Positions 39,197 through 56,638 are shown, counted from the stretch's first letter. The stretch: DNA of 64,000 nucleotides from a virus (IMGVR_UViG_2524614838_000004:20261-84260), one strand, 5' to 3'. The notes: generated by a model not told the origin, from the letters alone. Numbers and translations are program-made.

Positions 39197-40311
39197 TGGC
39201 ATTGCAACCATTTTACACCGTTACAGATTGGCAGAACTTGCCATCGCAGAAAACAGCACTAAATCGGACTAATTTACTTCACACGGAAAATGGAGTAAAG
39301 GAACTGGATAACAGGACCGTACAGCTGGACGCAAGCAAGGCAGATAAATCCCTGGTTAATGCTTTGGTAAAAGACATTACGGTGGACGCTGACACCGGAA
39401 TATTAACAATAACCTATCAAAATGGTACGGTTAAGACTTATGATCTGGATATTGAAAAGGTAGTAACAAACTTTGATATCAACGATGATAATGAGTTAGT
39501 GCTTACCCTGGCAGACGGTACGCAGAAGATCATTGATCTTACCAGATTTGTTTATTCGGTAGCAAGTACGGCCACTATCTCCATGACGATCACTGACCGA
39601 GTCATGCGGGCGACTATTGTTGATGGTTCCGTAACCATGGCAAAATTAGATGCTGCTATTCAGACAGAATTCCGGCAGTATATGCTTGACGCTCAGGCCG
39701 CCCGTGATGCCGCCCTTCAGTATCAATTATTTGCTAAGCGGTACACGCTTGGAGATCAGAGTTTTCCAGGGAGTGAAATAGATAATGCTAAATATTATTA
39801 CGAGCAGACGAAAACCGCAGAGGAAAATGTAATCCAGAATGCTCAATCCGCTGCAGAGAGTGCCGGCACGGCTACGGAGCAGGCCACGATTGCAACGCAA
39901 AAAGCCACAGCTGCTACAGCTGCCACGAATACGGCAACCGCAGCGGCACAAACGGCTACGGAGAAAGCCAACGCAGCAGCAGCCAGTGAGCAGGTGGCAA
40001 CACAGAAAGCGGCAGCTGCAGGGGCCAGCCAAATAGCGGCAGCTCAGAGCGCCACTGAAACCTCTGATAGTGCGTTACAGGCCAAACGATATGCAATAGG
40101 CGGCGTGGTGCCGGAAGATCCGGAAGATAATGCAAAATGGTATTATCAACAAACAAAGAATCTGAAAGAACAGGTGGACGCGGCGGCTAAGATATCGGTT
40201 CCACATTTTTATGTGGATCCTGTCACTATGCAGCTCATGAGTGATACGGAAGCCAAGGGTATGAGGTTTTGGTACAATAATGGAAAGTTTTATGGGGAGG
40301 TGACAGCATAA
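39196..40311 (+). CDS. Tail fibre/baseplate upper protein with Ala/Thr-rich repeats
   Basis: A(T/A)EQA/ATQKA heptad repeats; DNAKYY motif present twice. Confidence 0.7.
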   Translation: MALQPFYTVTDWQNLPSQKTALNRTNLLHTENGVKELDNRTVQLDASKADKSLVNALVKDITVDADTGILTITYQNGTVKTYDLDIEKVVTNFDINDDNELVLTLADGTQKIIDLTRFVYSVASTATISMTITDRVMRATIVDGSVTMAKLDAAIQTEFRQYMLDAQAARDAALQYQLFAKRYTLGDQSFPGSEIDNAKYYYEQTKTAEENVIQNAQSAAESAGTATEQATIATQKATAATAATNTATAAAQTATEKANAAAASEQVATQKAAAAGASQIAAAQSATETSDSALQAKRYAIGGVVPEDPEDNAKWYYQQTKNLKEQVDAAAKISVPHFYVDPVTMQLMSDTEAKGMRFWYNNGKFYGEVTA

Positions 40312-41183
40312 TGGCTGAAATATATGGAACAATCGGGATCCGCCCTATGGGGGAATATAATCCTGATACAAAATATGAATTGTTGAATTTAGTCAATTAT
40401 GACGGTAGCAGCTATGTAGCTCATACAGAACCGCCGTTGGGAACTCTGCCATCGAATACGGCATACTGGCAGGTATCAGCCCAGGGAACCAGTAAAGCTA
40501 CGGCTGACAGCGTAGGAACGGTAAAGCCGGACGGAGTAACAACGGAGGTTAGCGCTGATGGTACATTGAGTGCTAAAACTGCCTCGCAATCCACTGCTGG
40601 TATGGTGAAGGGTAGCCAAGGTATTACGGTAGGGACGGGCGGCGCAATTGATGTGAATACGGCCTTTACGCAGGCCACAGAACTGGCCAATATTATAGCC
40701 GGGGAAGCAATTGCGCAGGTGCTGGGGAAAATATCTAAGGCTATTGCAACAACAATGAACTTAGATCAAAACGCCTTACTTAAGAACATGCTGACTAATA
40801 TGGATGCCAATGATCAGAATAAGATCAATACCGCTGCATATGTACATACTCTTACGGAGCGCATTGGCATGAGTACAGAGCTGACTGCAGGTGCCAATTT
40901 AACCGCAGCCCTTAATGCACTAAATAGCAATTTACCGAACCTAATCATAGCACAATCACAAACGCTTCCGGAAACAGCGGTACCGGCTAATGGTTATGTT
41001 GATATTTCGTACACCCCTACGCCCATAAACGGATATACTCCATTTCAGTATTCGCTTTGGTCTGGAGGGAATCCCTCTGTCGGTATTGTGGCTATCACAT
41101 CCAGTTTGGTCAGGTTACGTAATTTTTCTGGTGCATCAATAAATGCCACACCAATTATATCGGTGACATATAAAAGGGCCTAA
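40311..41183 (+). CDS. Tail fibre/receptor-binding protein with an exchangeable C-terminus (cassette A expressed)
   Basis: LNSNL junction encoded by the recombination site at 40918-40934. Confidence 0.8.
   Translation: MAEIYGTIGIRPMGEYNPDTKYELLNLVNYDGSSYVAHTEPPLGTLPSNTAYWQVSAQGTSKATADSVGTVKPDGVTTEVSADGTLSAKTASQSTAGMVKGSQGITVGTGGAIDVNTAFTQATELANIIAGEAIAQVLGKISKAIATTMNLDQNALLKNMLTNMDANDQNKINTAAYVHTLTERIGMSTELTAGANLTAALNALNSNLPNLIIAQSQTLPETAVPANGYVDISYTPTPINGYTPFQYSLWSGGNPSVGIVAITSSLVRLRNFSGASINATPIISVTYKRA
40918..40934 (+). repeat. Shufflon site 1, CACTAAATAGCAATTTA
   Basis: Perfect 17-bp inverted repeat of 41449-41465. Confidence 0.9.
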
Positions 41184-41187
41184 ATGC

Positions 41188-41465
41188 TCATTTTTCGACC
41201 CAAGATCCCCATGTATTGACCCTCGTTCTTATCCAAAATCTAGGGGCCACCTCTAATGAGGTAAATTTTTGGATCGCGAAAGATGATGAGTCAATAAACA
41301 TTGTTTCTACAATGCCGTGGAACGCAGCAGGAAGATTAGTGCAACTACTTGCTGCCCTGTATACAGAAAGAACATTGATGATGGTTGGAATTTCATTCAG
41401 ATTTCCAGCATACTCACCTCTGTTTACTACCTTTGCGGAAATATTGTTTAAATTGCTATTTAGTG
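41188..41465 (-). other. Silent tail-fibre tip cassette B (pyocin-knob-like) with site 2
   Basis: Start-less open frame LNSNLNNISAKVVNRGEYAGNLNEI...FWIRTRVNTWGSWVEK*. Confidence 0.85.
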
Positions 41466-41537
41466 AAGAAAAGAAACTTGTAAATCACAGTCCCATAAGG
41501 GGCTTATTTTTATGCTCATCTGAGCGGAAAGGAAATT

Positions 41538-41948
41538 ATGAGTAATATAAGAATCGAAAGAATTAAGTTTGGTACTCAGGAATTCGATCTGATCGCAGCC
41601 GGGGTTAATCTTGGAGAAAGTGGTGGAACCATTGCCTTTTTGAAAGGGTCCGCTTCTTTCGAGTCCATCGAAGCTGCCTTGAAAGAAAATGGAAGCATAG
41701 TACAGATCGGATTATCCGGAGAGCCGGACTGGACCCGGTCTGACTTAGTTTATGCGGGCAAGCTGGCAAAACAGTCCGATCAGGTTATCGGCACGGCAGA
41801 AGATGGTGTGACCTCCATCACAGCAGATGTCATAACCGCCACTTTTCGCACACCGGATCTGACCGAAACCGTAAAGGAACAGGCTGCAGAGATCAAATCA
41901 TTAAGAGCAACTGTTGACACATTAGTATTATCAAGTTTGGAGGGATAA
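41538..41948 (+). CDS. Tail-associated hypothetical protein
   Basis: RBS AAAGGAAA; C-terminal coiled-coil LRATVDTL. Confidence 0.7.
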   Translation: MSNIRIERIKFGTQEFDLIAAGVNLGESGGTIAFLKGSASFESIEAALKENGSIVQIGLSGEPDWTRSDLVYAGKLAKQSDQVIGTAEDGVTSITADVITATFRTPDLTETVKEQAAEIKSLRATVDTLVLSSLEG

Positions 41949-41950
41949 GC

Positions 41951-42079
41951 ATGTTTGATACATTAATGAGATTATTTGATAGCGGCAAGGGCCCGCTGAC
42001 AACTGCAATGTTGGCGAATGCAGTCATTAAGAAATGGATTACCGAAGAACAGAAACAGGAGATCCTTGCATCTAAATAA
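41951..42079 (+). CDS. XkdX-like small protein, 42 aa
   Basis: AVIKKWITEEQKQEI motif. Confidence 0.7.
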   Translation: MFDTLMRLFDSGKGPLTTAMLANAVIKKWITEEQKQEILASK

Positions 42080-42098
42080 ATGAAACGGAGGTGCTGCC

Positions 42099-42425
42099 AT
42101 GACTGAAACGGAGGTTGCGGTTAGATTGGAAGCCCATGAGCATGAAATAAAGTCTTTGAAACACCGAATGGAAGATCAGGAAGAACAGAGCAAATCTATA
42201 CAGGACCTGGTTCTATCGGTAAAGGAATTAGCTCTTAATATGCAGGCAATGCTTAAGGAGCAGGGGAGCCAGGGGGAAAGGTTGGCTAAATTGGAGGCAG
42301 CTCCAGGAGAAACATGGAATAACATGAAACGGACGTTTGCAAACAGATTTATTGATATCATTGCCGGGGCGCTTGCTACCGGCATTATTGTTATGATAAT
42401 TCAAAATTTAAAAATAGGAGGATAA
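42099..42425 (+). CDS. XhlA-like membrane protein
   Basis: Coiled-coil plus C-terminal TM helix. Confidence 0.7.
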   Translation: MTETEVAVRLEAHEHEIKSLKHRMEDQEEQSKSIQDLVLSVKELALNMQAMLKEQGSQGERLAKLEAAPGETWNNMKRTFANRFIDIIAGALATGIIVMIIQNLKIGG

Positions 42426-42429
42426 TATC

Positions 42430-42633
42430 ATGAACAAAGATTATATGGTAAAGTGGGCAAAGGCAGCAGGAGTAAGAGCGGTAAAGACGATGGCGCAGAC
42501 AGCTATTGCAACAATCGGGACAACGGCGGTAATGTCCGGTGTAGATTGGATTATGGTGGGATCAGCAACAGCACTGGCCGGGATCCTTTCCGTACTTACA
42601 TCGGTAGCTGGACTGCCGGAGCTAAAAGAATAA
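42430..42633 (+). CDS. Holin (r1t type)
   Basis: KAAGVRAVKTMAQTAIATIG...SVLTSVAGLPE. Confidence 0.9.
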   Translation: MNKDYMVKWAKAAGVRAVKTMAQTAIATIGTTAVMSGVDWIMVGSATALAGILSVLTSVAGLPELKE

Positions 42634-42703
42634 CAAGTTGTAACGTCACAACTTTTCGGGCCTGGGATCTCCCGGGCCTTTTCTTTTTGATTGGAGGATT
42701 ATC

Positions 42704-43564
42704 ATGGAGATTAAAAAACTACTTACACCGTATAACCATAATATCGGCACTCTGGATCGTATCAAGTACATCGTGATCCATTATGTTGGGGCCCTGGGAG
42801 GTGCAGAAGCAAACTGTAAATACTACGCGTCCCAATACATTGGAGCCAGCGCTCATTATTATGTCGGGTTTGATGGGGGAGTTTGGCAGTCTGTTGAGGA
42901 TCAGAACATAGCATGGCATTGCGGAGCAAAAACCTATACTCACCCGGAATGCCGGAATGCAAACAGCCTGGGGATCGAGCTCTGTGTTAGGAATAAGGGG
43001 AGTCAGGCGGATACAAGCTGGGATTGGTATTTTGAGGAGGCTACGGTGCAGGCAGCCATTGAACTGACCAAGGAACTGATGGCGAAGTACAACATCTCTG
43101 CAGATCATGTAATACGGCACTATGATGTGACCGGGAAGATTTGTCCCAATCCTTATGTTTATAATCACACACAGCATACTTGGGAGGCATTTAAGACGGC
43201 TCTGACGGCTACACCGGAAAAGAAATTCGGCTGGCTCCAGGAGGACGGCGGATGGAGATTCTACAACGGTGATACCGGCGAGTATGTCCGTAATGATTGG
43301 CACCAGGATCCTGATGGTAAATGGTACTGGTTTGATGGTGCCGGTATGATGGTCTCAAACGTCTGGTATCAGCACAAGGGCGCATGGTACTACCTGGGAC
43401 CAGACGGCGTTATGTGTGCTTCACAACTTGTAGAAAATTCCGGAAAGATTTATGCGGTAGATGCGGATGGTAAAATGGTTACTGAACCTGTAATGTTAAC
43501 TCCTGATGCTGATGGTGCATTGCAGTATCCGGGGTTAGCTAACCAATTATTTACCAACCTTTAA
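42704..43564 (+). CDS. Endolysin: N-acetylmuramoyl-L-alanine amidase with cell-wall-binding repeats
   Basis: IVIHY, SAHYY, AWHCG, IGIE-like SLGIEL, RHYDVTGKICP; GW/WY repeats. Confidence 0.92.
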   Translation: MEIKKLLTPYNHNIGTLDRIKYIVIHYVGALGGAEANCKYYASQYIGASAHYYVGFDGGVWQSVEDQNIAWHCGAKTYTHPECRNANSLGIELCVRNKGSQADTSWDWYFEEATVQAAIELTKELMAKYNISADHVIRHYDVTGKICPNPYVYNHTQHTWEAFKTALTATPEKKFGWLQEDGGWRFYNGDTGEYVRNDWHQDPDGKWYWFDGAGMMVSNVWYQHKGAWYYLGPDGVMCASQLVENSGKIYAVDADGKMVTEPVMLTPDADGALQYPGLANQLFTNL

Positions 43565-43669
43565 ATTGTAAGTATATTTGAAATGAAGTTAGGTGAAGAT
43601 AATTGTAAAATATGGATGAAATAGAAAGGAAAGTGTGGTATAATGGCAATCAATGGGGGGTACATAGAT

Positions 43670-45730
43670 GTGAAGAATGAAAATGCATTAATTGCTTTAG
43701 CCTATATAAAAGAAACAGATAATCCATTAACAGTATTTTGCAATTATGTTTTGATATGCTTAATCATAACACCGGCCTCTTCGTTGAGGCATGACGAATT
43801 ATCTGATAAAATTTCGGAGCAATTTGGCTTAAAAATGCCACAGCACATGCTAAAAATGTGTTGTCGAATCTTAGAAAAAGACAAAAAGATTGAAAGACTT
43901 TCAAAAGGTGCAGGATATTTACTTAAAGATTTTTCTTTTGATTTAAGTGGTTTTGAAGTAAAGAAAACTCAATTGCAAGATAAAGAACGCTTATTAGTTA
44001 ATGGACTAATGTCTTATGCTGAGGATTATAAATTAAATTGGAACTATCAACAGGCTAGAGAATATTTAACGAATTTTTTATTGGTTCGTGGAAATGCTGT
44101 TGCAATATTTGCAGAAAAAGCAGTTAAAGAAGTTGAAAAAGAAAAATTTGTGTCCAATGATTGGTATGTTGGAAAATATGTATCCCATTTACTTGAATGT
44201 AATGATGCAAGAACAGAATATCTTATTGATATAGTAAATGGAATGATGATTTATATTGGATTGTATGAAACAAATGACTATAATCAGGACCGTAACCAAA
44301 AGTTTAAAGGAACGAATTTTTACTTTGATACTAAATTAATTTTACGGTTAATGGGATATTCATGGACGCTGGAAATTGAGTCTACGAAAGAATTATCAGA
44401 TTTAATTGAAAAAGAATATGGTGGAAATATTTGTGTTTTTGAGCATACAGTTGGAGAAATTGAATCTGCCTTATATAATGCAGCTGAAACCTTAAAAAGG
44501 GGTGAGGTTATTGCAGATTATGAGTTAAGAATGTATGTAGAGTTAAACAAATGTACTGATTACGATTTAAGATTGCAAAGCCAATCTGCAAGAGCAACCA
44601 TAGAAAGAAAATTGGGATTTAGAGTACAACCTTCTGTCGATTGGGAAGAAAAGAAGAATTATAAGAATAATTTAGACTCGGAGGCATTAATACAGTTTGT
44701 TAAGTGCAAGCATTTACGATGGAAAGAAAGAGCAATAGAAAATGATATTGATTCAATAAATTATATTAATATATTGCGAAAGGGTGATTATTCAGTCAAA
44801 TATGGAGGACGTAAAAAATTGCCTGTTTTTATCACAACCAATACAGCTCTGGTTTGGGATATTAAAGAATATATCCACAGGTTTGGAGCAGATGATAAAG
44901 GGGTTGCTATGTGGAATCCTAATGCATTACCGATTATTTCAGACAATATGCTTATGTGTCGATTATGGTTGCCAAAAGCACAGAATTCAACAACTATTCC
45001 GTTGTTGACTTTAGCTAGGAATGCTTATGCTGCACAGCAGGCCAATACTGCCTTTTTTGAAAAATTAAGAACCTCTGCCAAAGAATTAAAACAGAAGCAT
45101 AACATTGATGTAATTGATATTTCTATTGCTAGAAAAGAAAAGCTGGAAGAATTATTGATAAAAAACACAGCTGGAGATATGGAAGAAATATCAGTTGAAA
45201 TGCTGGCTACGTCAGTTGAAGAAATGATTAAGCTTGAAACGATGAGTCTCCAAAAATCAGTTGAAAAATTAGAGACAGAAAAGGATATTCAAGTTCTCAT
45301 TAATGAGAGTAATAGGAAAAATATTATACGATCGGCAGTTAAAAGGTATAAAAATAAATTGGGACTAAAAAGAATATTAATTTATGTTGCCAGATCATAC
45401 TGGATATGTTTAACTATAGTTTTTGGATTTTTAAGTTTGGGCCTTTCAAAAGCCAAAGGATTACAGATAACAAGTGAATTACCTTATTTTGGGATTATAT
45501 ATGTTTTTATTTTCCTTTTGCTAAAAGTATTGGAAAAGGCAACGAATAAAGGATTTGTTGGAGAACTGTTTTTATCAACGGCAATAAAATATGTTTGGAA
45601 AAAGTATTCGGAAGAAGTGAAAATGGGGTTATTGGATTTTGAAAAAGGAGATGAAAGTGAAATTCTTTTGGCTTGTATTGATGAGACTCCCATATTAAAT
45701 AAATATCGAAAATATTATGAATTAAATTAG
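43670..45730 (+). CDS. PIN-like domain protein with two C-terminal TM helices (moron)
   Basis: YFDTKLI...EHTVGEI...ENDIDS...FITTN acidic pattern; AT-rich; own -10 element. Confidence 0.6.
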   Translation: MKNENALIALAYIKETDNPLTVFCNYVLICLIITPASSLRHDELSDKISEQFGLKMPQHMLKMCCRILEKDKKIERLSKGAGYLLKDFSFDLSGFEVKKTQLQDKERLLVNGLMSYAEDYKLNWNYQQAREYLTNFLLVRGNAVAIFAEKAVKEVEKEKFVSNDWYVGKYVSHLLECNDARTEYLIDIVNGMMIYIGLYETNDYNQDRNQKFKGTNFYFDTKLILRLMGYSWTLEIESTKELSDLIEKEYGGNICVFEHTVGEIESALYNAAETLKRGEVIADYELRMYVELNKCTDYDLRLQSQSARATIERKLGFRVQPSVDWEEKKNYKNNLDSEALIQFVKCKHLRWKERAIENDIDSINYINILRKGDYSVKYGGRKKLPVFITTNTALVWDIKEYIHRFGADDKGVAMWNPNALPIISDNMLMCRLWLPKAQNSTTIPLLTLARNAYAAQQANTAFFEKLRTSAKELKQKHNIDVIDISIARKEKLEELLIKNTAGDMEEISVEMLATSVEEMIKLETMSLQKSVEKLETEKDIQVLINESNRKNIIRSAVKRYKNKLGLKRILIYVARSYWICLTIVFGFLSLGLSKAKGLQITSELPYFGIIYVFIFLLLKVLEKATNKGFVGELFLSTAIKYVWKKYSEEVKMGLLDFEKGDESEILLACIDETPILNKYRKYYELN

Positions 45731-45839
45731 GTTTAAACACATAGGCGAAAGCATAATTTAGGATCTATGAAAAGCATTATCATAAAGATAGTGCTTTTTT
45801 GCGATTTTTTAAGAAGCTCATCTCAGCTTATATAAAAAC

Positions 45840-45858
45840 GTTAGTCAAATGTTAGTCA
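45840..45858. repeat. Tandem GTTAGTCA repeats (arm-site-like)
   Basis: Two copies at 45840 and 45851, next to the tRNA fragment. Confidence 0.45.
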
Positions 45859-45939
45859 TTTGGATGAAATTAAATTTTCTTAAAACTAATTTAATCTCTT
45901 AAAATAAGAAAAAACCCCGCAAACACGAGGTTTTACATA

Positions 45940-45981
45940 AGCTCCCGGGGGGACTCGAACCCCCGACCCACGCATTACGAA
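45940..45981 (-). pseudogene. 3' half of tRNA-Thr(CGT), att-core-like
   Basis: TTCGTAA-TGCGT-GGGTC-GGGGG-TTCGAGT-CCCCC-CGGGAGC-T; the 5' half (needs ACGCA) is absent. Confidence 0.8.
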
Positions 45982-46127
45982 GAATCAATATTTTGGAGAA
46001 TGCATTGAATTACATAGACGATAGAGCTGACTACTCCAGATCCGGATTGAGCTTTGAGATATCCAGAATTAGCTGAGTAAAACGATAGGCGGACTTCCGG
46101 TTTATTACGGTAGTTCGCCTTTTTGTG

Positions 46128-46685
46128 TCATACTGATTTGTACTTAACCTCATTTATAGCTTTGCTCATTGTACTTACAGGATCGTGACCATTAAACCAC
46201 TCATCATGACATGCTTTCGGAAGAATCACCGGCATTCTATCATGAATAAAGGAAATACCTGACCAAGCCGGACGTGTCAGAATAACGAAAAGAGATTCCC
46301 CGGTTTTAGAATCAATCTTTGAAAGTCCGGCCATCCACACGGGAGAATTATCAGGTGCTGCCAGTGAATATTTTATTTTTTTAGAACCTTGTTTTTCCCA
46401 TTCATAGTACCAACTTGCCGGTACCAGGCAGCGACCTTCCATCATTGGGCGACGGAACGTATTCTTTTCTGCGGCGGTTTCACTTCTTGCATTAATAATT
46501 TCACCTTTGCCATCGAACTTTGGAAACCCCCAACGCATTGCCGCCATGGTTCCATTTGGAGATAAAACAGGAGCAGTGTTTGTTGGATATATTTCTCCGG
46601 TTTTTATTGCATTTTTATTTTCTACGGCAGCAATAATGGATTGTAATTCAACGTTGTCTATCTCAATATAATATCTTCCACACAT
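46128..46685 (-). CDS. SOS response-associated peptidase (SRAP/YedK/HMCES family)
   Basis: N-terminal MCGRY; INARSET; WYYEW; IHDRMPVIL. Confidence 0.92.
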   Translation of the reverse strand: MCGRYYIEIDNVELQSIIAAVENKNAIKTGEIYPTNTAPVLSPNGTMAAMRWGFPKFDGKGEIINARSETAAEKNTFRRPMMEGRCLVPASWYYEWEKQGSKKIKYSLAAPDNSPVWMAGLSKIDSKTGESLFVILTRPAWSGISFIHDRMPVILPKACHDEWFNGHDPVSTMSKAINEVKYKSV

Positions 46686-46743
46686 ATCATTTGAACGCCT
46701 TTCATGTTATTTAATTTATGGTAGTATTACACTTGTTGCAATA

Positions 46744-47055
46744 TTATATTACCATAACCCATTTACAAGAGTCCATGAAATACACTAGTTTAAATTCATG
46801 ACATATGCCGCCGATAATGGCCTCACAGAGAAACTCCTTTGAAGGAATCCCATTATAATTTTTATCTTCGGTGCATTTTATTGTTATATTAGATATTGTT
46901 TGTATTATACCGTCATCACCCTCAAACTTAATGCTTAGCGGTCTGAGACTACAAGTGGATGTAAACCACGCCTTACAAGCGATGTGATACATTTTACCTC
47001 TAATTTCTCCGCTATCAATTTGATTGTTATTTGATCCGATTCCAAATGTCCCCAT
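46744..47055 (-). CDS. Small accessory protein of the Y-polymerase operon
   Basis: Lies between the polymerase and SRAP genes; RBS AGGTGA. Confidence 0.65.
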   Translation of the reverse strand: MGTFGIGSNNNQIDSGEIRGKMYHIACKAWFTSTCSLRPLSIKFEGDDGIIQTISNITIKCTEDKNYNGIPSKEFLCEAIIGGICHEFKLVYFMDSCKWVMVI

Positions 47056-47063
47056 AATATCAC

Positions 47064-48326
47064 CTACAACACATTCTGTTTATTATAGTCCACAGTCCTT
47101 TTCTCCCTGCTAATTCCACCACTCATATGATCTATGGATTTACTTTTCACAAAGCTTGCGCGCTTTATAGAATCCATTCCAAAGCGATTTCTAATTTCAT
47201 CTACTGCTTTATCCAGCAGCTCCAGTTTTTCATAGTCTACTTTATCAAATATATTTAATTGTCGGCTGCTTTCAGTTGACACGTGATTTGTGTGTATGCC
47301 CAAATGACGGATAGGGATCTTATTCCACGCATCATCAAAAATCTGACAGGCTACTTCGTAAATCTCACGTGTGATGTTTGTTGGAGTATCAATGGTCATT
47401 TGGTGCCCGTAGTACTCCAGGTTATAATCTCTTATTCCTACGGATATTACGCTAATTTTAACATTATCCGCTCGTAGTCTGGCGCTTAATGTTTCCGCGA
47501 GAGACAGCAACACCAGATGAGCCGTTTCCCGGTCTATCACATCAAATGATATAGTTGTGCTATTGCCATATCCTTTGTTTGGAGGCGGGGTTGGCTCTAC
47601 AGATGTTAAATCAATACCATTTGCAAATGCCCATATAATTTCACCATGCTTGCCGAAATGAGCTTTGATTATTGTTAGATCGGTCTGGGCTAATTCTCCT
47701 ATAGTTTTAATTCCAATACCATATAACTTTTTTGTAGTTGCGCGGCCAACAAAAAATAAATCAGATACAGGCAATGGCCACATTTTATCCTTTATTTCAT
47801 GTGCCCATAAGGTATGTGTCTTGTTCGGTTTGGAGAAATCCGAAGCCATTTTTGCCAGGATCTTGTTACTGGATACACCGATATTTACCGTAAATCCAAG
47901 TTCTCCGAAAACGCGGTCCTTAATTTGATTGGCAACTTCCTCAGGTTCTCCAAATAAAGACTCAGTACCAGTCATGTCCATAAAAGCTTCGTCGATAGAG
48001 TACTGTTCTACAGTAGGGCTATATTCTTTGAGCATATTAAGAAACGCATCAGAGGATCGTTGGTAAAGATTATAGTTAGGCGGGACCAGAACAAGATCAG
48101 GACATTTGCGCAAAGCATCTGTTACTGGCTCACCAGTCTTTATATTATATTTTTTAGCAGGAATGCTTTTAGCAAGTATAATACCATGGCGTTTTGTTAC
48201 GTCACCACCAACAGCCGAGGGTATATCTCTCAAGTCTAACTTGCCACCAAGATGATACAATCTATATACAGCCTCCCAGCTTAGAAATGCCGAATTCACA
48301 TCGATATGAAATATAACTCTGTTCAT
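47064..48326 (-). CDS. dinB: Y-family DNA polymerase (DinB/UmuC-like)
   Basis: FHIDVNSAF, YSIDEAFMD, NKILAKMASD.SKP motifs. Confidence 0.92.
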   Translation of the reverse strand: MNRVIFHIDVNSAFLSWEAVYRLYHLGGKLDLRDIPSAVGGDVTKRHGIILAKSIPAKKYNIKTGEPVTDALRKCPDLVLVPPNYNLYQRSSDAFLNMLKEYSPTVEQYSIDEAFMDMTGTESLFGEPEEVANQIKDRVFGELGFTVNIGVSSNKILAKMASDFSKPNKTHTLWAHEIKDKMWPLPVSDLFFVGRATTKKLYGIGIKTIGELAQTDLTIIKAHFGKHGEIIWAFANGIDLTSVEPTPPPNKGYGNSTTISFDVIDRETAHLVLLSLAETLSARLRADNVKISVISVGIRDYNLEYYGHQMTIDTPTNITREIYEVACQIFDDAWNKIPIRHLGIHTNHVSTESSRQLNIFDKVDYEKLELLDKAVDEIRNRFGMDSIKRASFVKSKSIDHMSGGISREKRTVDYNKQNVL

Positions 48327-48361
48327 TTTATCACCCCTACATATATTTATTACAGTATAGT

Positions 48362-48375
48362 CGAATGTATGTTCG
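48362..48375. promoter_or_regulatory. LexA/DinR SOS box
   Basis: CGAACATACATTCG on the minus strand, next to a TATACT -10. Confidence 0.8.
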
Positions 48376-48738
48376 AATAATAGTGGAAATTTCAGGGAAA
48401 ATGTAGGGAGATGTTCCGGGTCTGCATTAAAAACTACTTTGCATGCTTCCCGGGGCATGATATAATAGGCATGTAGAGTGGCAGAAAGGATAGCCACATG
48501 GACGATAATCTTAAAGCAATCAATATAATTCACTTCGGCGGCAAATCAATTTATCTAAATGATACGTGTATTTCGCACACAATTTTCAAACAAGGGCAAG
48601 TTTTAGAAGCAGCGATTTATGGAAATATGATAGTTATAAGACCCGCTTTGTCATCAGAAACGCTTAAGAACTAAATAATGTAAATGGTCACTCTACAAAA
48701 AAAGAGGTAGGGACATTTATGTCTTTACCTCTAATATT

Positions 48739-48954
48739 TTATCCATGAGCGAGCATTCCGCATTCTTCACAATATAACCAAGTAGACTTATTACGAACTT
48801 TATTAGGCGTTTTAATTCTTTTAGCATTGGCATTATCATAACCACATACAGGACATATAAATTTGGTTTCGCCATACCAGCCTATTTTTTCTAAAGCATT
48901 TAATCCGGATTCAATAAAAACGAAACATTCATCTTTTTTAAATTGTTTTTCCAT
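48739..48954 (-). CDS. Zn-ribbon small protein
   Basis: CPVCG...CEECG; RBS GGAG. Confidence 0.6.
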   Translation of the reverse strand: MEKQFKKDECFVFIESGLNALEKIGWYGETKFICPVCGYDNANAKRIKTPNKVRNKSTWLYCEECGMLAHG

Positions 48955-49011
48955 AGCAATTTCTCCTTGGTCTCTTTTCAAAAATAGTATAACATATTTA
49001 GAAAAATAAAT

Positions 49012-49025
49012 CAAACATATGTTCG
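49012..49025. promoter_or_regulatory. Probable SOS box between divergent genes
   Basis: CAAACATATGTTCG. Confidence 0.5.
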
Positions 49026-49105
49026 TAAAATGCTTATAATGGATATTTGTTGAAGTTGAGTTTGAATGTGCTATAATAAATATATCTTAGGAGTGATGAT
49101 TAAAT

Positions 49106-49681
49106 ATGAAAAGAAAGTATTTATTTATAATTATATTTATTATTTTTTTATTATTAAGCTTTACTGTCTTTAAAAAGGCAAATAAAACAGATGAAAGCAA
49201 ATATCTTAATAGTGGGAATCAGATTGATACATATGCGAAAAATTTTATGCCGGCCATTGAAGATTTACCCACATCTCAAGCTATAACATACGAATACAAT
49301 CGTGCTTCAATAATATTGTTTGAGACAGAAACATTAATGCTTGTCGTCAAGTATGATGAGGAAATATATAAAAAGGAAAAAGAAAAATTAACAGAGAAGT
49401 ATAAGTTTTTAGACCATAAAGTGGTTTCAGATTTTGATAAAGAAAAATATTATATTCCCGAGTATCAATTCTCAATAAATAACTACGAGCTTAAAGTTGT
49501 AAACGGAAGTGACAGTTATAAAGCAGAATATCCCAAGTCATTTGGTATGATTGGAATATCTGATAAAAAAAAGAGTATAGCATATTTATATTTCTATGAT
49601 TATGATTTAGACTATATCCAATGTGATGATGAAAGCCCGATGGCTGGTTTTGTTAATAAGTATTTTAAATATGATTTTTAG
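49106..49681 (+). CDS. Membrane-anchored hypothetical protein
   Basis: N-terminal TM/signal segment; RBS AGGAG. Confidence 0.75.
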   Translation: MKRKYLFIIIFIIFLLLSFTVFKKANKTDESKYLNSGNQIDTYAKNFMPAIEDLPTSQAITYEYNRASIILFETETLMLVVKYDEEIYKKEKEKLTEKYKFLDHKVVSDFDKEKYYIPEYQFSINNYELKVVNGSDSYKAEYPKSFGMIGISDKKKSIAYLYFYDYDLDYIQCDDESPMAGFVNKYFKYDF

Positions 49682-49684
49682 GCA

Positions 49685-49994
49685 AAATAGCAATTTAAAT
49701 AACAGAGGTGTCGTGACTCAGATTGCAGTTATTACAGCAACAGGAGCTACAACCGTACCGAATATGTCAGCTTACAAGTACATCTATGCCTGCGGTATGC
49801 AGGGTACAAACAATGCAGTATGTTCAGTTTTTGCTCCTTACAGCGTGTTTAAAGGAGATGCTTTACTGTACGCATCTTTTTATGACGGCAGTACAGTACG
49901 ACAATTTTCCATAAGAGCCACAAATGACACAACGGTTAATATTGGTGTTATCACTAACTGTTCCAACGGAGTAACGATCTATGGAATTAAATGA
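49685..49994 (+). other. Silent tail-fibre tip cassette C with site 3
   Basis: AAATAGCAATTTA then open frame NSNLNNRGVVTQ...TIYGIK*; no RBS of its own. Confidence 0.8.
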
Positions 49995-50003
49995 TCATTG
50001 TGT

Positions 50004-50338
50004 TTATTGACAAATATAACTCGTGGATAGCATGTAATCTGTAGACGTTTTCATTGCACCTGCTTTGAATATTCTACCCTCTGGATCAAGCTCAAACTGT
50101 ACAACTTCGGTTCCCCATGTATTTATACATAATCCATAAAGCCTTCTTGGTGGTTTGAGCGCATTTGGAAACTGAATCACTCTAAGTGAAGCATCAATTG
50201 TTGCATTTGTTGTAAATCTTAATTGCACAAACGCAATATTACCAGATTTAATTGCATAACAATAATCTGTGTTCAATATAGCCTGCTGTGCTGAAAAGTC
50301 TGCCGCTAAATATGTTTTGTTGTTTAAATTGCTATTTA
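50004..50338 (-). other. Silent tail-fibre tip cassette D with site 4
   Basis: TAAATAGCAATTTA then open frame NSNLNNKTY...STSYICQ*. Confidence 0.8.
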
Positions 50339-50354
50339 CGAACATATTTTAAGA

Positions 50355-50400
50355 TTCCCACATTTCCCATTCATAATATGATAATATGGTATCAGTGAAA
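50355..50400 (+). promoter_or_regulatory. Putative late promoter/activator site, copy 2
   Basis: TTCCCACATTTCCCATT identical to 35043-35059; TGATAAT -10-like element. Confidence 0.6.
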
Positions 50401-50454
50401 AGTATATCAACATGCGCTTGGCTTCGGCTGGGCGCATTTTTCGTGGGTGGAATT

Positions 50455-50586
50455 ATGGAAAAGAAAACTGAAAAATCAGAACAGAATAAAAAAGAATCTA
50501 TTTGGAGAGATAGAAATTCACAACACCCGAAATGGAAGTGTGCTAGTGGAATGACTTTTAAGCCAAAGAAGGTGAGAAGCGGATGA
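50455..50586 (+). CDS. Small basic protein before the portal gene
   Basis: ATGA overlap with the portal start. Confidence 0.45.
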   Translation: MEKKTEKSEQNKKESIWRDRNSQHPKWKCASGMTFKPKKVRSG

Positions 50587-52034
50587 ATAAGCTCAATTAT
50601 ATAGATATTTGCAAGGGTGCATTTGGACGCAAGGTAGCGTATACCGGTGTTTCCACCATTACTTCCGAAAATATCTTGAAAGTGGTTGGCAGAGCAGTCA
50701 GTGTTCTGAATTACAATAGGCCGTTCATTCGGTATCTCCATGATTATTACATGGGTGATCAGCCAATTTTATACAGAGAAAAGGCGGTCCGTCCAGAAAT
50801 CAATAATAAAACGGTTGAAAATCATGCCTTAGAGATTGTCCGTTTTAAGGCGGGTCAGACATATGGAGAACCGATCCAATATGTAAGCCGAAGAAAAGAT
50901 GAGAACATCAATAAGGCTGTTGACGCTCTTAATGATTATATGAGAGACGCTCATAAACAGGCAAGAGACATTGAACTTGGCACATGGCAAAGTTCCGTAG
51001 GGACTGCTTATAAGGCAACCTTAAAGGCCGGTAAGAACGATCCAGTTCCTTTCCGAATTCACATTCCTACGCCGCTAAATACGATTGTAGTATATTCACA
51101 GGAAGATGGCCGGGATATGCTTTCGATTCAGCAGTTGAAAGACGAAAATGAGCAACAGTATTATCTTTGTTTTTCAGAGGATAAATACTTCATAATTAAG
51201 AATGGACAGGTTACAGTGACTAATATTAACGGATTCGGCGGAATTCCGATAACCGAATATCCTAACAATCCAGACCGATTGTCTGATATTGAGGTTGTCA
51301 TTACAGCTTTGGATCAGATAAACAAAATGCAGTCTGATCGAATGAATGGCATTGAGCAGTTTATCCAGGCATTTATGCTTTTTAAAAACTGTGAGATTAC
51401 GTCAGATGAATTTATAAAGATGTGTCAATTAGGTGCGATAACGGTTAAGGATGCCAGTCAGACTAATAATTCAGATGTAAAGCTCATGACGGAACAACTG
51501 GATCAGGAGCAGACACAGGTCGCCAAAGATGATGTATACCGGCAAGTGCTTGTGGTTGAGGGAATGCCGGATCGTCAGCAGAATACCGGCGGTGATACTG
51601 GGCAAGCAGTCTATCTTCGGAATGGTTGGGATTTTGCAGAGCAACGGGCAAAACTTGATGAACCATTCATTATTGAAGCAGAAAAGAAACATTGCCAAAT
51701 CGTGCTTAATCTCATCAAACAGGCCACTAATGATGTTCCGTTAACTGTTCGGGATTTTGATGTGAAAATAACCCGTAATTCCACTGATAATATGCTTGTA
51801 AAAGCACAGTCATTGGAATACCTTTTGAGAAATAAAATACACCCATTAATAGCACTTACAACATGTGGATTGTTTGGAGATCCGGAAAAAGTATGGTTGA
51901 TGAGTCAGCCTTATATGGACACAGTATTTAAAACTCAAGAGCAGTTAGATGTCGAGGTTGAAAAAGCAAGAGCAAATGAATTGCTAAAGAGCCAATCAAA
52001 TAATTCAGCAGTTAAAACAGGGGAAGCCGAATAG
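50583..52034 (+). CDS. Portal protein (SPP1 gp6-like)
   Basis: LHDYYMGDQPILYR...INNKTVENHA.EIV; FGGIPITEYPNN. Confidence 0.9.
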   Translation: MNKLNYIDICKGAFGRKVAYTGVSTITSENILKVVGRAVSVLNYNRPFIRYLHDYYMGDQPILYREKAVRPEINNKTVENHALEIVRFKAGQTYGEPIQYVSRRKDENINKAVDALNDYMRDAHKQARDIELGTWQSSVGTAYKATLKAGKNDPVPFRIHIPTPLNTIVVYSQEDGRDMLSIQQLKDENEQQYYLCFSEDKYFIIKNGQVTVTNINGFGGIPITEYPNNPDRLSDIEVVITALDQINKMQSDRMNGIEQFIQAFMLFKNCEITSDEFIKMCQLGAITVKDASQTNNSDVKLMTEQLDQEQTQVAKDDVYRQVLVVEGMPDRQQNTGGDTGQAVYLRNGWDFAEQRAKLDEPFIIEAEKKHCQIVLNLIKQATNDVPLTVRDFDVKITRNSTDNMLVKAQSLEYLLRNKIHPLIALTTCGLFGDPEKVWLMSQPYMDTVFKTQEQLDVEVEKARANELLKSQSNNSAVKTGEAE

Positions 52035-52129
52035 CTTTTCTTTTTTATTTTGGAGCTATCCGTCAAATAGCAGAATCCAGCAGGTGCGACCTGCGTTATC
52101 AAAAGCGTGGATTAAAGGAGGATATTATT

Positions 52130-52759
52130 ATGACCAGAGAACAGGCCAAAAAGTATTTAATTGATTTGGGAATTGAACAGCCGACAGATGACCAGGTAAC
52201 AAAATACCTTAATTCGTTTGGTGGTGAAGTTCAGAAAGCAGAGAAAAAGGCGGAAGCCAATAAGGAAGAATTGGAGCGGCTAAAGGCTATTGAAGAAGAA
52301 TTGGAACTTGAAAAAGAGAAGAATCTTTCAGCCGAAGAAAAGGCAAAGAAAGCTGAGGAGGCGGTCCAGAAAGCTTTAAATGCTGCACAGCTTAAAGAAG
52401 CAGAATTTGCGAAAAAAATAAGCCGATTAAGTGTAGAAAGCATTCTTAAGGAGGCTGGATTGACAGAAGATGATTGGTCCGGCTTCATTGATGGTTTCGT
52501 ACATGAAGATGAAGAAGTCTCCAAGAATATGGCTACAAATTTTATCAACATACATACTGGGAAATTAAATAGCCAAAAAGAAGAGCTGCAGGCAAATTTT
52601 GAAAAGCAGATCCTTGAACATACACCAAATCCAAATGGAGCTGGTGGCGGTGGGGAGGGACAGAAGTCAAAAGCCGAGGAAATGGCTGTAAGTCTGGCCA
52701 AGAAAGGCTCTGCAACAAATAACAATTCAGTGATTAGTCACTATTTAGGAGGTAATTAA
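52130..52759 (+). CDS. Capsid scaffold protein
   Basis: Glu/Lys-rich coiled-coil; TPNPNGAGGG near the C-terminus; position. Confidence 0.8.
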   Translation: MTREQAKKYLIDLGIEQPTDDQVTKYLNSFGGEVQKAEKKAEANKEELERLKAIEEELELEKEKNLSAEEKAKKAEEAVQKALNAAQLKEAEFAKKISRLSVESILKEAGLTEDDWSGFIDGFVHEDEEVSKNMATNFINIHTGKLNSQKEELQANFEKQILEHTPNPNGAGGGGEGQKSKAEEMAVSLAKKGSATNNNSVISHYLGGN

Positions 52760-52760
52760 T

Positions 52761-53099
52761 ATGCCAATGCAATTTGAATCAGTAACATTTGGAGCAAAAG
52801 TGGAAATTCTCAATCGTGCTGAATTTGAGGGTGTTCCTGTAACGCTGGATTTTACTGCTGTTACAGCTACGGAAAATGGAAGAAAAGTTGTTAAGGCTGG
52901 TACCCCAATCGGCGTAGATGGCGTTTCTGATAACACAGAAGCGGTTAAGGGGATCCTGTTGTGGGACGTGTATGAGGATAGACCTATTGGAACTATTTTA
53001 AAGAAAGCATATGTTAACACAACAAGAGCACAGGCTCATTCCGGCGTAACCATTTCGGCAGAGGCAAAAGCCGCTCTTCCTATGGTTGTATTTGAATAA
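52761..53099 (+). CDS. Head decoration protein
   Basis: VVKAGTPI...GILL.DV. Confidence 0.7.
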   Translation: MPMQFESVTFGAKVEILNRAEFEGVPVTLDFTAVTATENGRKVVKAGTPIGVDGVSDNTEAVKGILLWDVYEDRPIGTILKKAYVNTTRAQAHSGVTISAEAKAALPMVVFE

Positions 53100-53113
53100 G
53101 AGAGGAGACTATT

Positions 53114-54187
53114 ATGCAGTTATCTGAAATTTTTAATTCAAGAGCAGTTGCCTTGAATCGTACAGAGGGAGAAAGCAATAAAATCCCATATCTTGGGATG
53201 CAGTTTTTCCCCAATAAAAAGAAAATGGGGATCGACCTTAAGTGGATCAAGATTCACAAAGGGCTTGGAGTTACGTTAAAGGCTTCCAGCTTTGATGCAA
53301 AGCCCACCATTAGAAGCCGAGAGGGATTCAAGATCGAAAAGACGCAGATGGCGTTTTTCCGTGAGTCCATGATTGTTAAAGAAGAGGACATGATTGAAAT
53401 TATGCGTATTAGGGAAAGCGATGACCCTTATGTGGAATCTGTTCTGCAGAGTATCTATGATGATACAAATAACTTGGTTGATGGTGCGGATATTGTTGCA
53501 GAACGAATGAGAATGCAGCTTCTGGCAACAGATGATGGTTCTCCAAAGATTTATCTGGAGGCTGATAATACTACATATGAGTACAATTACGATCCAGATG
53601 GTTCCTATAAGGCAAATCATTATTTGAAACTTTCCGGTGACGCTACATGGGATAATCCTGCCACATCAAAACCACTAAATGATTTCAGGCAGGCAAAAAA
53701 GGCTTTGAAGTCAATTGGAGTTACACCAAAGTATGCTTTGATGACTTCTGCTACATTTGACTATTTGCTTGAAAGTGAGCAGATTAAGTCAGCGATACTG
53801 GCCCAGAATGCTACTGCCAATATTTTCTTAGATGATGAAATGTTGGCTGATTTCTTCACGAAGAAGACGAAACTGATCCCATTGCTTTACGATAAAATGT
53901 ACATTAAAGAGGACGGGGTGACCCAGGAGAATTTCTATCCGGATAATAAGGTCACACTTTTGCCATCGGAAGATTCTATGCTTGGCAATACATGGTATGG
54001 AACTACCCCGGAAGAAAGAACCTTGATTGGAGACAGCAAAGTGGATGTCACAATCCTTGATAGAGGTGTCGCCATTGCAGTCAAAACGGATCCCGGCCCT
54101 CCAGTTGCGGTTTCAACATCTGTATCGCAGATTGTTCTTCCTTCTTACGAGGGAATGGATTCAACCTTTGTGTTAGAAGTTGCGTAA
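53114..54187 (+). CDS. Major capsid protein (lambda gpE-like)
   Basis: FFPNKK..G; GADIVAERMRMQLLA; VLPSYE. Confidence 0.88.
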   Translation: MQLSEIFNSRAVALNRTEGESNKIPYLGMQFFPNKKKMGIDLKWIKIHKGLGVTLKASSFDAKPTIRSREGFKIEKTQMAFFRESMIVKEEDMIEIMRIRESDDPYVESVLQSIYDDTNNLVDGADIVAERMRMQLLATDDGSPKIYLEADNTTYEYNYDPDGSYKANHYLKLSGDATWDNPATSKPLNDFRQAKKALKSIGVTPKYALMTSATFDYLLESEQIKSAILAQNATANIFLDDEMLADFFTKKTKLIPLLYDKMYIKEDGVTQENFYPDNKVTLLPSEDSMLGNTWYGTTPEERTLIGDSKVDVTILDRGVAIAVKTDPGPPVAVSTSVSQIVLPSYEGMDSTFVLEVA

Positions 54188-54202
54188 GGGGGATAAGGTG
54201 AT

Positions 54203-54469: not shown

Positions 54470-54484
54470 AGGGCGGTGAGATGA

Positions 54485-54805: not shown

Positions 54806-54852
54806 GTGTCGAATATGCCACTTTAACTATTTGAAAACAGGAGGATTTTATC

Positions 54853-55074: not shown

Positions 55075-55094
55075 GATCTGATTTTTAAGACGGT

Positions 55095-55162
55095 GCGTGT
55101 CTGGCTAACCTCCCGGCCGGACGCAGGGTGCATATCAGAATAATGGTGGTGGGCAGGTATGC
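55095..55162 (+). ncRNA. Two-hairpin element with a possible pseudoknot
   Basis: GCGT..CTGGC/GCCGG.ACGC and GCATATC/GGTATGC stems; loop ACCTCC complementary to loop GGTGGT with one mismatch. Confidence 0.35.
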
Positions 55163-56635: not shown

Positions 56636-56638
56636 ATC

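Follow-up and report, generated by a model that had tools for sequence, protein, structure and literature searches.

Six tail-fibre tip cassettes in three dispersed pairs of a Lacrimispora-type prophage: a putative site-specific switching system with remote silent reservoirs

In the R64 shufflon (Rci, sfx, pilV), a tyrosine recombinase carries out multiple inversion at short, asymmetric and partly conserved sites; the product is the pilus adhesin of a plasmid, the segments are contiguous, and rci lies adjacent to them. We know of no R64 pairs that break at their tails, nor of a second site type in that system. The Gin, Cin and Min systems depend on an adjacent serine invertase and on 26-bp sites, which consist of two 12-bp half-sites and a 2-bp crossover centre. 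By inversion, Min (plasmid-prophage p15B), Gin (Mu) and Cin (P1) swap tail-fibre C-termini, and the several crossover sites of Min give rise to many isomers, as summarized in PMC6109161. The Rin shufflon of Bifidobacterium prophages uses 11-bp asymmetric rix repeats that are rare elsewhere in the genome; its cassettes form one contiguous array beside rin, the recombinase being Xer-like without an arm-binding domain (PMC6109161). Also, the fibre shufflon of BV01-like Phocaeicola phages is a compact 1.7-kb array flanked by a recombinase, all configurations of which are present in reads, with directional motifs of ~10 bp plus extensions separating unrelated cassettes that overlap the end of the fibre gene (PMC13596623). 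For the R64 shufflon, PMC9881135 cites Komano 1999.

The locus presented here lies in a window of 64,000 nucleotides, the whole stretch of DNA that was analysed, from a large prophage (85 kb) of a Lacrimispora-type gut clostridium (genome 6.38 Mb). It has the broad features of a shufflon: inverted short repeats, the six S sites, bound alternative C-terminal segments, and a single N-terminus is accompanied by sites that all read NSNL in the cassette frame, with N-C, N-E and N-B-like fusions in relatives. The contiguity and the adjacent recombinase of shufflons are absent here and present in a relative (provirus L053). With moderate confidence, we propose that the receptor-binding tip of the fibre is switched by a programmed, site-specific exchange of cassettes, for which the remote pairs would serve as silent reservoirs.

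The fibre gene and its cassettes

The features of the locus are the following, positions past 64,000 being window-equivalent:

40311..40920, plus strand: constant N-terminal part of the fibre, 203 codons preceding NSNL
40923..41183, plus strand: cassette A, the expressed tip, 86 codons and stop
41188..41460, minus strand: cassette B, its silent partner, 90 codons and stop
41463..49683, unstranded: segment between pairs 1 and 2
49686..49994, plus strand: cassette C, silent, 102 codons and stop, with an in-frame ATG at 49671
50004..50336, minus strand: cassette D, silent, 110 codons and stop; the ORF 50004-50345 begins MFV-NSNL
50339..64000, plus strand: segment between pairs 2 and 3, with portal, scaffold and major head protein through to tape measure (59630-64000)
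64961 to 65486, outside the window: pair 3, from S5 to S6, cassettes E (87 codons) and F (88 codons)

The fibre gene is the last structural gene, preceded by the genes of DUF6711/Dit, a 665-aa tail protein and a 371-aa fibre-like protein and followed by the lysis genes, and its N-terminus is single copy in the whole genome by tblastn. A comparison of 1120 fibre homologues reveals conservation that runs to ...NALNSNL and unrelated sequences beyond, the break between constant and variable parts being exactly at S. The assignment made in the preliminary description, a last tail gene with a constant N-terminus and a hypervariable tip, is borne out. Moreover, the AF2 model of cassette B has a pLDDT of 91 and is matched by the knobs found in fibres of phages and R-type pyocins; in the comparison with R2/R1 pyocin fibre knobs and phage RBPs, the TM is 0.66 and the probability 1.0, at an E value of only 2e-3. 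The predicted fold of cassette B is that of a pyocin/phage-fibre knob, and the monomer model of the whole fibre is poor. Its location as the final gene of the tail module, together with this fibre-knob tip, places the gene with phage tail-fibre and receptor-binding proteins.

The six cassettes (86-110 codons) form three tail-to-tail pairs at three places, separated by 8.2 and 14.6 kb and spanning 24.6 kb. The preliminary description had counted four cassettes in two pairs; the pair E/F lies outside the window, 1 kb past its edge, and only 50 bp separate it from the end of the prophage. Host DNA starts again at 65549. Its statement that each site encodes NSNL in frame and is followed by a different stop-free domain holds for A to D at the lengths listed. 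The other two frames of these four close within 0-6 codons, all five silent cassettes are open in the NSNL frame only, and each open frame would arise by chance with a probability of 0.2-0.7%. B and C had been said to have no start of their own, which is correct for B but not for C, where the ATG five codons upstream (MIFRQ) overlaps the stop of a 191-aa gene; cassette D also has an ATG three codons upstream, leaving B as the only strictly startless cassette among A-D.

The segment between pairs 1 and 2 contains a 136-aa conserved gene, an XhlA-like gene, a holin, an amidase endolysin, a 695-aa unknown gene, a tRNA 3' fragment (45902-45981), SRAP and a Y-family polymerase (both minus strand), and a 191-aa membrane-type ORF; its XhlA-like/holin, endolysin, tRNA fragment, SRAP and polymerase genes agree with the preliminary description of the segment. 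Each of the three pairs marks a border between modules (fibre/lysis, cargo/portal and tape measure/prophage end), and in G401 a pair precedes TerL. At least four further Lacrimispora genomes have kept the pair that precedes the portal, in some cases with cassettes that are decayed or with cores not matching pair 1. As a separate observation, the late-gene order is non-canonical but conserved in the lineage, the portal-to-tape-measure block being downstream of the lysis genes.

Head and tail sites

The sites that delimit the cassettes are, in order:

40921..40934, plus strand: head site S1, TAAATAGCAATTTA, exact 14-mer in the expressed position
41181..41194, unstranded: tail site T1, TAAATGCTCATTTT, degenerate copy of TAAATGATCATTTA containing the stops of A and B
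41449..41462, minus strand: head site S2, exact 14-mer, inverted relative to S1
49684..49697, plus strand: head site S3, AAAATAGCAATTTA, 13/14 match
49988..50001, unstranded: tail site T2, TAAATGATCATTGT, junction of pair 2
50325..50338, minus strand: head site S4, exact 14-mer
64961, plus strand, and 65486, minus strand: head sites S5 and S6, just past the window
65224: tail site T3, junction of pair 3

In site S, TAAATAGCAATTTA, the arms TAAAT and ATTTA flank an asymmetric core, AGCA. The four sites of the preliminary description (S1 to S4) are confirmed; the position 40918 that it gave for the first is the start of a perfect 17-bp inverted repeat shared by S1 and S2 (CACTAAATAGCAATTTA, 40918-40934 and 41449-41465). 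Allowing up to two mismatches, seven matches to S are observed against 1.9 expected, and the S 13-mer occurs 11 times in the 6.38-Mb genome against 0 for the reversed control. The 85-kb prophage has no S-like sequence other than the six S sites; these sites alternate between plus and minus, and every one opens a different cassette.

A comparison with relatives places breakpoints at these same sites. At S1, their homology switches from the fibre to cassette C or E exactly there; the homology with G419 (95%) stops at 49698, that is at S3, a different cassette coming next in G419; and the region preceding the portal that is conserved among many Lacrimispora genomes starts directly after S4. Among 144 possible codings of NSNL, the relatives' sites use nearly always AAT AGC AAT TTA. 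The arms are invariant across genomes, whereas the central 4 bp differ (AGCA, AGCG, ATCA, AGTA or AGTG), and in the pairs with a variant core both sites carry the identical variant (4/4). Fixed arms around a variable centre that is matched within the pair are what is expected of a recombinase core site. Partner sites share only 14-17 bp, of the form TAAAT-N4-ATTTA. It is highly probable, in our view, that the tip is switched by site-specific recombination at S, although the length of S, 14 bp with a 4-bp centre, is shorter than textbook core sites of tyrosine or serine recombinases and counts against this.

The tail site T, a palindrome TAAATGATCATTTA at each tail-to-tail junction, combines the arms of S with a GATC core, and this core also provides stop codons for both strands. 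Three of the four T-like sequences in the 85-kb prophage are tail junctions. Also, the T 12-mer AAATGATCATTT is perfect in ~10/17 tail junctions from many genomes and has three occurrences in this whole genome. The T sites of this genome are imperfect (12-13/14), which counts against the main reading. Cassette homology breaks exactly at S and T, and these breakpoints suggest that the T sites would be recombined as well.

Cassette traffic and alternative readings

In relatives, cassettes that this genome keeps silent serve as expressed tips: C in P0004/L012, E (98.6%) in P0005/L013-L022, a B-like tip in P0124, a fibre homologue among the 58 relatives of cassette B, and an F-like tip in P0078. 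For example, in the Logan contig L012, C (99.7% nt) is joined at S to a fibre N-terminus that is 93.8% nt identical. The constant part is only 94% identical in C carriers and 85% in E carriers, and because C and E are far closer than the constant parts of their fibres, recent traffic between remote and expression positions is suggested. Moreover, pair-2 cassettes of other genomes match expressed tips, and P0123 has a B-like cassette at the pair-2 position. Relatives joining this N-terminus to B, C or D, whose absence would have spoken against the preliminary description, exist for C, exactly at S, and for a B-like tip, whereas a search for relatives of D found none on any fibre and, in the Atlas, only look-alikes from phages and Bacillota, which counts against the main reading. 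The sole relative found for cassette A is weak (P0110, 32% identity).

A comparison of P0005 with P0006, two configurations of a relative phage from different samples, shows an N-terminus 100% identical over 208 aa and flanks 100% and 99.9% identical, with an inner segment that takes the form [E><G] or [G><H] and breaks at S and T; the expressed position and the silent one are occupied by different cassettes in the two configurations. The partner of E is F in this genome and G in that phage. Also, a comparison of L013 with L048 shows the replacement of a single cassette with unchanged flanks. The exchange unit, formerly taken to be the pair, is revised here to one cassette with S at its head and a palindromic T at its tail, and with such a unit routes besides nested inversions become possible.

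We infer that one expression site, the constant N-terminus ending in S1, would be served by six unrelated tips stored as three pairs. A recombinase, probably of the Xer-like tyrosine type and supplied in trans, would bind the arms and exchange strands only between matching cores. Recombination of S1 with S2 would flip pair 1 and put B on the fibre. The remote cassettes could be reached by larger inversions of S1 with S4 or S6, by nested re-inversions as proposed earlier, S1 with S4 and afterwards S2 with S3, or by paired S-S and T-T exchanges replacing one cassette; for the first route, the inversion would turn over 9-25 kb including lysis or head genes, which counts against it. As for the A/B swap by inversion, the anatomy is that of an invertible segment, but only N-A is seen: no switching was observed between the genome and an independent short-read assembly (ERR105105), which show 100% identity over 30311-43049 and share the N-A fusion, and the assembled contig crosses pair 1 without a break.

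The participation of the remote pairs is favoured only slightly. It is conceivable, although unlikely, that only pair 1 works, as an A/B two-state switch, and that pairs 2 and 3 remain as inactive remnants of past recombination or inter-phage module exchange, which persist only because they are recent. Relatives with truncated remote cassettes (15-57-codon stumps and 136-781 bp insertions in L023, L037, L038 and L039) fit such decay, G424 and G419 have pair 2 and no homologue of this fibre, and pairs 1 and 2 of G426 have different cores and should therefore not cross-recombine; the disturbance of late genes by large inversions and the absence of heterogeneity between the two assemblies point the same way. 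However, all four remote cassettes are intact here, with a joint chance of open frames <1e-9, the remote S sites match S1, at least four further genomes have pair 2 at the same, conserved position, and the identities of C and E indicate recent traffic.

Exchange without a dedicated recombinase, in which S and T would be linkers where rare homologous or microhomology recombination of co-infecting phages swaps tips, giving mosaicism and not phase variation, is improbable. It would agree with the absence of an adjacent recombinase, with cassettes far more alike between phages than their flanks, as horizontal exchange would give, and with a tail/fibre/lysis module common to phages with unrelated head modules. 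Nonetheless, 14 bp is too short for RecA-type exchange, the tail-to-tail anatomy of inverted sites occurs in every carrier, the sites have the pattern of recombinase core sites, L053 has a recombinase between its pairs, and cassettes that are never expressed remain open. In conversion systems such as pilE/pilS, transfer from silent loci is non-reciprocal and RecA-dependent. That the silent cassettes are donors for conversion of this or the vlsE type, S and T being short anchors, is very improbable, since the anchors are very short, conversion needs neither inverted pairing nor core agreement within a pair, and accessory elements of known conversion systems were not noticed, in a search that was not systematic, even if a single expression locus with a constant part, remote promoterless partial cassettes with conserved head and tail motifs, and the L013/L048 replacement would fit.

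Recombinase candidates and comparison with described systems

Under the switching reading, the enzyme would act from a distance. The preliminary description had noted no adjacent recombinase, and indeed the nearest genes are these:

22050..22628, minus strand: tyrosine recombinase, 192 aa, catalytic domain only, second candidate
14120..15157, plus strand: Xer-like tyrosine recombinase, 345 aa, in the early region, 26 kb away
2972..3889, plus strand: tyrosine recombinase, 305 aa, third candidate

The 345-aa enzyme is the best in-cis candidate. It is conserved with the phage lineage (G401, 82% nt; G405, 85% aa and syntenic; G426, 85%), and because the prophage ends resemble serine-integrase att sites, it need not be the integrase. 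In L053, two pairs 1.7 kb apart enclose an Xer-like tyrosine recombinase, 16 bp from a site, whose best match in this genome is the 345-aa enzyme (25% identity, E 3e-29); both are Xer-like and, as in Rin, have no arm-binding domain. Homologues of the 192-aa protein are present in G426 and G414 and were not found in G401 or G405, and for the 305-aa protein the related G401 element yielded no DNA homologue. No recombinase co-occurs with the sites in every carrier, and one provirus, rated 100% complete, contains a single pair and an integrase as its only recombinase; together with the lack of an adjacent recombinase here, this counts against the switching reading. In a PF00239 scan of the genome, the sole hit was a large serine recombinase of 551 aa, encoded at the extreme left of the prophage; a small serine invertase was found neither in this genome nor in three related proviruses.

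In engineered cassette exchange with heterospecific lox or FRT sites, arms are shared, spacers differ, and like recombines only with like. The resemblance of the present locus to this laboratory design is functional only. It is a tentative possibility that each tip is a natural cassette-exchange unit with heterospecific sites, TAAAT-AGCA-ATTTA and TAAAT-GATC-ATTTA, the central 4 bp setting compatibility groups, and that the recombinase might permute modules. If so, pairs would be coupled (here, all AGCA) or insulated (G426) by these 4 bp; the same recombinase might turn or permute whole genome modules, since the pairs sit at module borders, and such permutation could underlie the late-gene order of the lineage.

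A comparison with the Din family (Gin/Cin/Pin/Min) shows neither an adjacent small serine invertase nor 26-bp sites here; unlike Min, Gin and Cin, the sole serine recombinase of this prophage is large, of the integrase type and at the far left, and the sites differ. With the R64 shufflon, the locus shares short, asymmetric and partly conserved sites, a constant N-terminus and tail-to-tail cassette pairs within segments, but it belongs to a phage fibre, its pairs are dispersed, and T is a second site type. Like the BV01-like shufflon, it is found in a gut temperate phage and has directional motifs between unrelated fibre-end cassettes; in this case, however, the cassettes are dispersed and their switching is putative. 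The Rin shufflon also belongs to a temperate phage of a Gram-positive gut bacterium, joins a constant RBP N-terminus to alternative C-terminal cassettes and has short, asymmetric repeats that are seldom found elsewhere in the genome. The present locus differs from it in its three dispersed pairs, which cover 24.6 kb and have no recombinase close by, in the palindromic site at the tail of every cassette, and in a fibre and sites whose sequences show no relation to their Rin counterparts. The best reading of the locus is a scattered variant of the Min/Rin/R64 kind, the dispersed layout being what is new.

Head sites, cassettes and the fibre gene

The most plausible interpretation of the region is a shufflon of tail-fibre tips whose cassettes are dispersed and bounded by head and tail sites. 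The head sites (S) that the preliminary description had placed in the fibre gene and about 8 kb away from it are real, being three exact 14-mers and one copy matching at 13 of 14 positions. Likewise, the four cassettes it had described in two pairs are all present, each opened by NSNL (S read in frame); the total, however, is six cassettes in three pairs.

Head sites of the prophage (window-equivalent positions extend the numbering of the window beyond its ends)
40921, plus strand: S1, exact 14-mer TAAATAGCAATTTA
41449, minus strand: S2, exact 14-mer TAAATAGCAATTTA
49684, plus strand: S3, 13/14 matches to TAAATAGCAATTTA
50325, minus strand: S4, exact 14-mer TAAATAGCAATTTA
Window-equivalent 64961 (plus) and 65486 (minus): S5 and S6, third inverted pair, just beyond the window end

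S1 and S2 form a perfect inverted repeat of 17 bp. The S 13-mer is found 11 times in the whole 6.38-Mb genome versus 0 times for the reversed control, and S-like sequences in the 85-kb prophage are restricted to the six sites. Isolated exact S 14-mers are observed elsewhere in the genome, at window-equivalent 164711, 167645 (with an NSNL frame of 40 codons) and 488598.

The cassettes A (86 codons) and B (90) of pair 1, C (102) and D (110) of pair 2, and E (87) and F (88) of pair 3 show no mutual resemblance, and NSNL is encoded at every site. Their alternative two frames are closed within 0-6 codons, the chance per open frame being 0.2-0.7%. Upstream of cassette C, a low-GC ORF of 191 aa (49106-49697) with a signal or membrane-type start has a stop that overlaps the ATG of MIFRQ-NSNL-cassette C; this gene is present in genome G419 at 95% identity, without the MIFRQ start. 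Because the database protein P0123 starts likewise, cassette C may in addition be translated independently. P0123 has the MIFRQNSNL start of the S3 context followed by B-like domains, and therefore represents a B-type cassette at the pair-2 position in a relative.

The constant N-terminal part of the fibre gene (N) is present as a single copy in the genome (40311-40920). Upstream of the fibre gene lie DUF6711/Dit and the genes for a tail protein of 665 aa and a fibre-like protein of 371 aa; downstream come a conserved gene of 136 aa, the XhlA-like and holin genes and the gene for an amidase endolysin. The 1120 homologues of the fibre gene come from Lacrimispora, Hungatella, Clostridium and metagenomes, with a conservation that reaches ...NLTAxxNALNSNL and unrelated sequences beyond. 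When each genus of the family was sampled by one genome, 1 weak match in 400 was obtained, and neither 24 kb of DNA nor the fibre protein had a match in a phage collection. Cassette B has 58 relatives, part on fibres of the same family and part as tandem domains within large proteins. Its AlphaFold model (pLDDT 91) is closest to the knob found in R2/R1 pyocin fibres and in phage receptor-binding proteins (TM 0.66, probability 1.0, with a weak E-value of 2e-3). In this model the match on fold is clear, so that cassette B is predicted to be fibre-knob-like; the whole-fibre AlphaFold monomer is poor (pLDDT 54).

Tail sites, matched centres and probable cassette exchange among relatives

A second site, T (TAAATGATCATTTA), is a perfect 14-bp palindrome located at tail-to-tail junctions, where it carries stops in two frames per strand. 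T has the same arms as S (TAAAT...ATTTA), the center being GATC in T versus AGCA in S. Of 17 junctions, taken from many genomes, about 10 contain a perfect copy of its 12-mer core, which has only three copies in this genome. Moreover, three of the four T-like sequences in the 85-kb prophage are tail junctions.

Tail sites of the prophage, all imperfect copies of T
41181: pair 1, TAAATGCTCATTTT
49988: pair 2, TAAATGATCATTGT
65224 (window-equivalent): pair 3, TAAATGATCATTTC

Across genomes, the arms of S are constant and the central 4 bp vary, with both sites alike in each of the four variant pairs.

Centers of S
AGCA: all six sites of this prophage
AGCG: pair 1 of genome G426
ATCA: pair 2 of genome G426
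AGTA: pair 2 of genome G419
AGTG: second prophage of the genome that carries the window (3,235,308/3,235,952), different 39-aa N-terminus

Judged from these sequences, fixed arms with matched centers would be the signature of a recombinase core site in which strand exchange needs matching centers, and the differing centers would make S and T heterospecific. In the second prophage (genome C1:3235308-3235965), the inverted pair combines the core variant TAAATAGTGATTTA with a tail motif similar to T; of its cassettes, one is similar to that preceding the portal gene in L. xylanisolvens.

One relative phage is represented in two configurations by the proteins P0005 and P0006, which do not differ in their first 208 residues (100% identity). 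The contigs carrying them agree in their flanks, at 100% on the left (2108 bp) and 99.9% on the right (1044 bp); between the sites, one contig has [E><G] and the other [G><H], where G and H are further cassettes. Inverting a fixed pair once cannot convert one arrangement into the other; pairs must be broken at their tails. Also, the partner of E is F in this genome and G in the relative phage, and when genomes are compared, C, E and G lose their homology at S and T. If the sites work as inferred, T would make the single cassette the unit of exchange. For this strain, an independent assembly from short reads is identical to the complete genome throughout pair 1, and both have N fused to A.

The preliminary description had proposed looking for B, C or D on this fibre in related phages. 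C is found in Logan contig L012, in which the fibre is 93.8% identical in nucleotides up to S and is followed by cassette C at 99.7%, and a B-like tip is carried by the fibre homologue P0124; no relative of D was found. Similarly, eleven contigs (L013-L022) have the fibre at 85% identity and then cassette E at 98.6%, and in these as in L012 the switch falls within the 13-14-bp site. F-like tips are present on P0078 and others, and silent cassettes of other genomes also match expressed tips of other fibres. No relatives of B and D were detected among representative genomes, nor any of D among longer proteins; for D, Atlas returned unnamed look-alikes only.

Prophage borders, recombinases and gene order

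In the phage-free relatives G404, G418 and G425, window-equivalent -19369 is joined directly to 65549, the junction lying in a ymxH/ylmC-like gene (MRICDLKQKEV...), inside its 5' end; the insert is therefore 85 kb.

Extent of the prophage
Window-equivalent -19369 to 65549 (genome C1:4538552-4623469): 85-kb insert containing the whole window

Early genes occupy window 1-20000, a large serine recombinase of 551 aa lies near the left end, pair 3 is 50 bp from the right end, and both ends have imperfect inverted arms (ACTGATAyCAwTTTAG). The sequence ATATCAATTTA beside the right end was considered as a relic S site and dropped; it is an imperfect inverted repeat of the left-end arm and is better read as one arm of a putative serine-integrase att site. 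Direct repeats marking a tyrosine-integrase att site were sought at the right end and none was found. Directly after S4, TATGATAATATGGTATCAGT (50366-50396) matches the left-end arm (window-equivalent ~-19365) at 17 of 20 bases, and the 11-mer they have in common has only 7 copies in the genome. G405 carries the region preceding the portal gene a second time, after the tape measure.

As previously described, no recombinase lies beside the cassettes. The prophage encodes the three tyrosine recombinases (2972, 14120 and 22050) of which one was suggested to act in trans, and the serine integrase; apart from this left-end enzyme, no serine invertase or IS110-type recombinase was found in it. In provirus L053, with two pairs 1.7 kb apart, an Xer-like tyrosine recombinase lies between them, 16 bp from a site. 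In this genome its best match (25% identity) is the Xer-like gene for 345 aa at 14120, which lies inside the prophage and is conserved in the lineage. In G401 and G405, the sites are not accompanied by the 192-aa recombinase (22050). The G443 provirus, rated complete, has one pair and its integrase as sole recombinase, so a trans-acting or host enzyme is possible.

The late region is arranged as TerL, HNH, Dit, tail, fibre, pair 1, lysis, cargo, pair 2, portal to tape measure, and pair 3. This order is non-canonical (31225-35560 and 50339-64000): Dit and the tail tip directly follow TerL/HNH, and the portal-to-tape-measure block lies beyond lysis and cargo, whereas the canonical order, represented by Lacrimispora sinapis JR3, has the tape measure next to Dit. 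The odd order, with a cassette pair upstream of the portal gene, is common to G401 (L. xylanisolvens, portal decayed), G405 and G426; G401 has an additional pair upstream of TerL. In G424 the same pair directly precedes the homologous block, and neither there nor in G419, which also has pair 2, was this fibre found. Certain remote cassettes are decayed in relatives. A derivation of the displaced block from the canonical order via S/T recombination is unsupported, because no S-like or T-like relic was found at the TerL/Dit junction and the left block is never site-bounded.

Other features of these modules were observed. The 80 bp of a tRNA gene 3' fragment (45902-45981, minus strand) recur with 100% identity at ~5.287 Mb. 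With G414, identity is 100% over 43600-45981 and breaks off exactly at this fragment, which therefore marks a module or element border inside the prophage. The shared stretch includes, past the endolysin, a low-GC ORF of 695 aa (43643-45730), 100% identical in G414 and with no family match in Pfam, PHROGs or NCBIfam. In L. xylanisolvens, the portal homologue has six stops and internal deletions, and the TerL homologue (94-95% aa) is in two parts separated by ~2.4 kb (L026/L027, G401 C1:476557-480717), which could be an intron or homing element. The match of the DnaB-like helicase (43-2082) to its family is split between residues 1-132 and ~384-655, which suggests an inserted element such as an intein.

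Significance and comparison with known systems

Fibre tips set phage host range. To our knowledge, shufflon-type tip switching is known in few phage groups only, namely Mu/P1/p15B, bifidophages and BV01-like phages; the present system adds a widespread Lachnospiraceae family, with prophages of Lacrimispora, Hungatella and Clostridium and human-gut contigs. If the sites work as inferred, fixed arms with variable 4-bp centers would constitute a naturally occurring collection of orthogonal recombination sites of only 14 bp, and the system would also offer a direct handle on gut prophages tracking host-surface variation. The system is akin to Min, Rin, R64 and BV01 as a variant (PMC6109161, PMC13596623, PMC9881135), being unusual in its silent cassette stores scattered over the prophage, its second, tail site and its lack of a linked recombinase.
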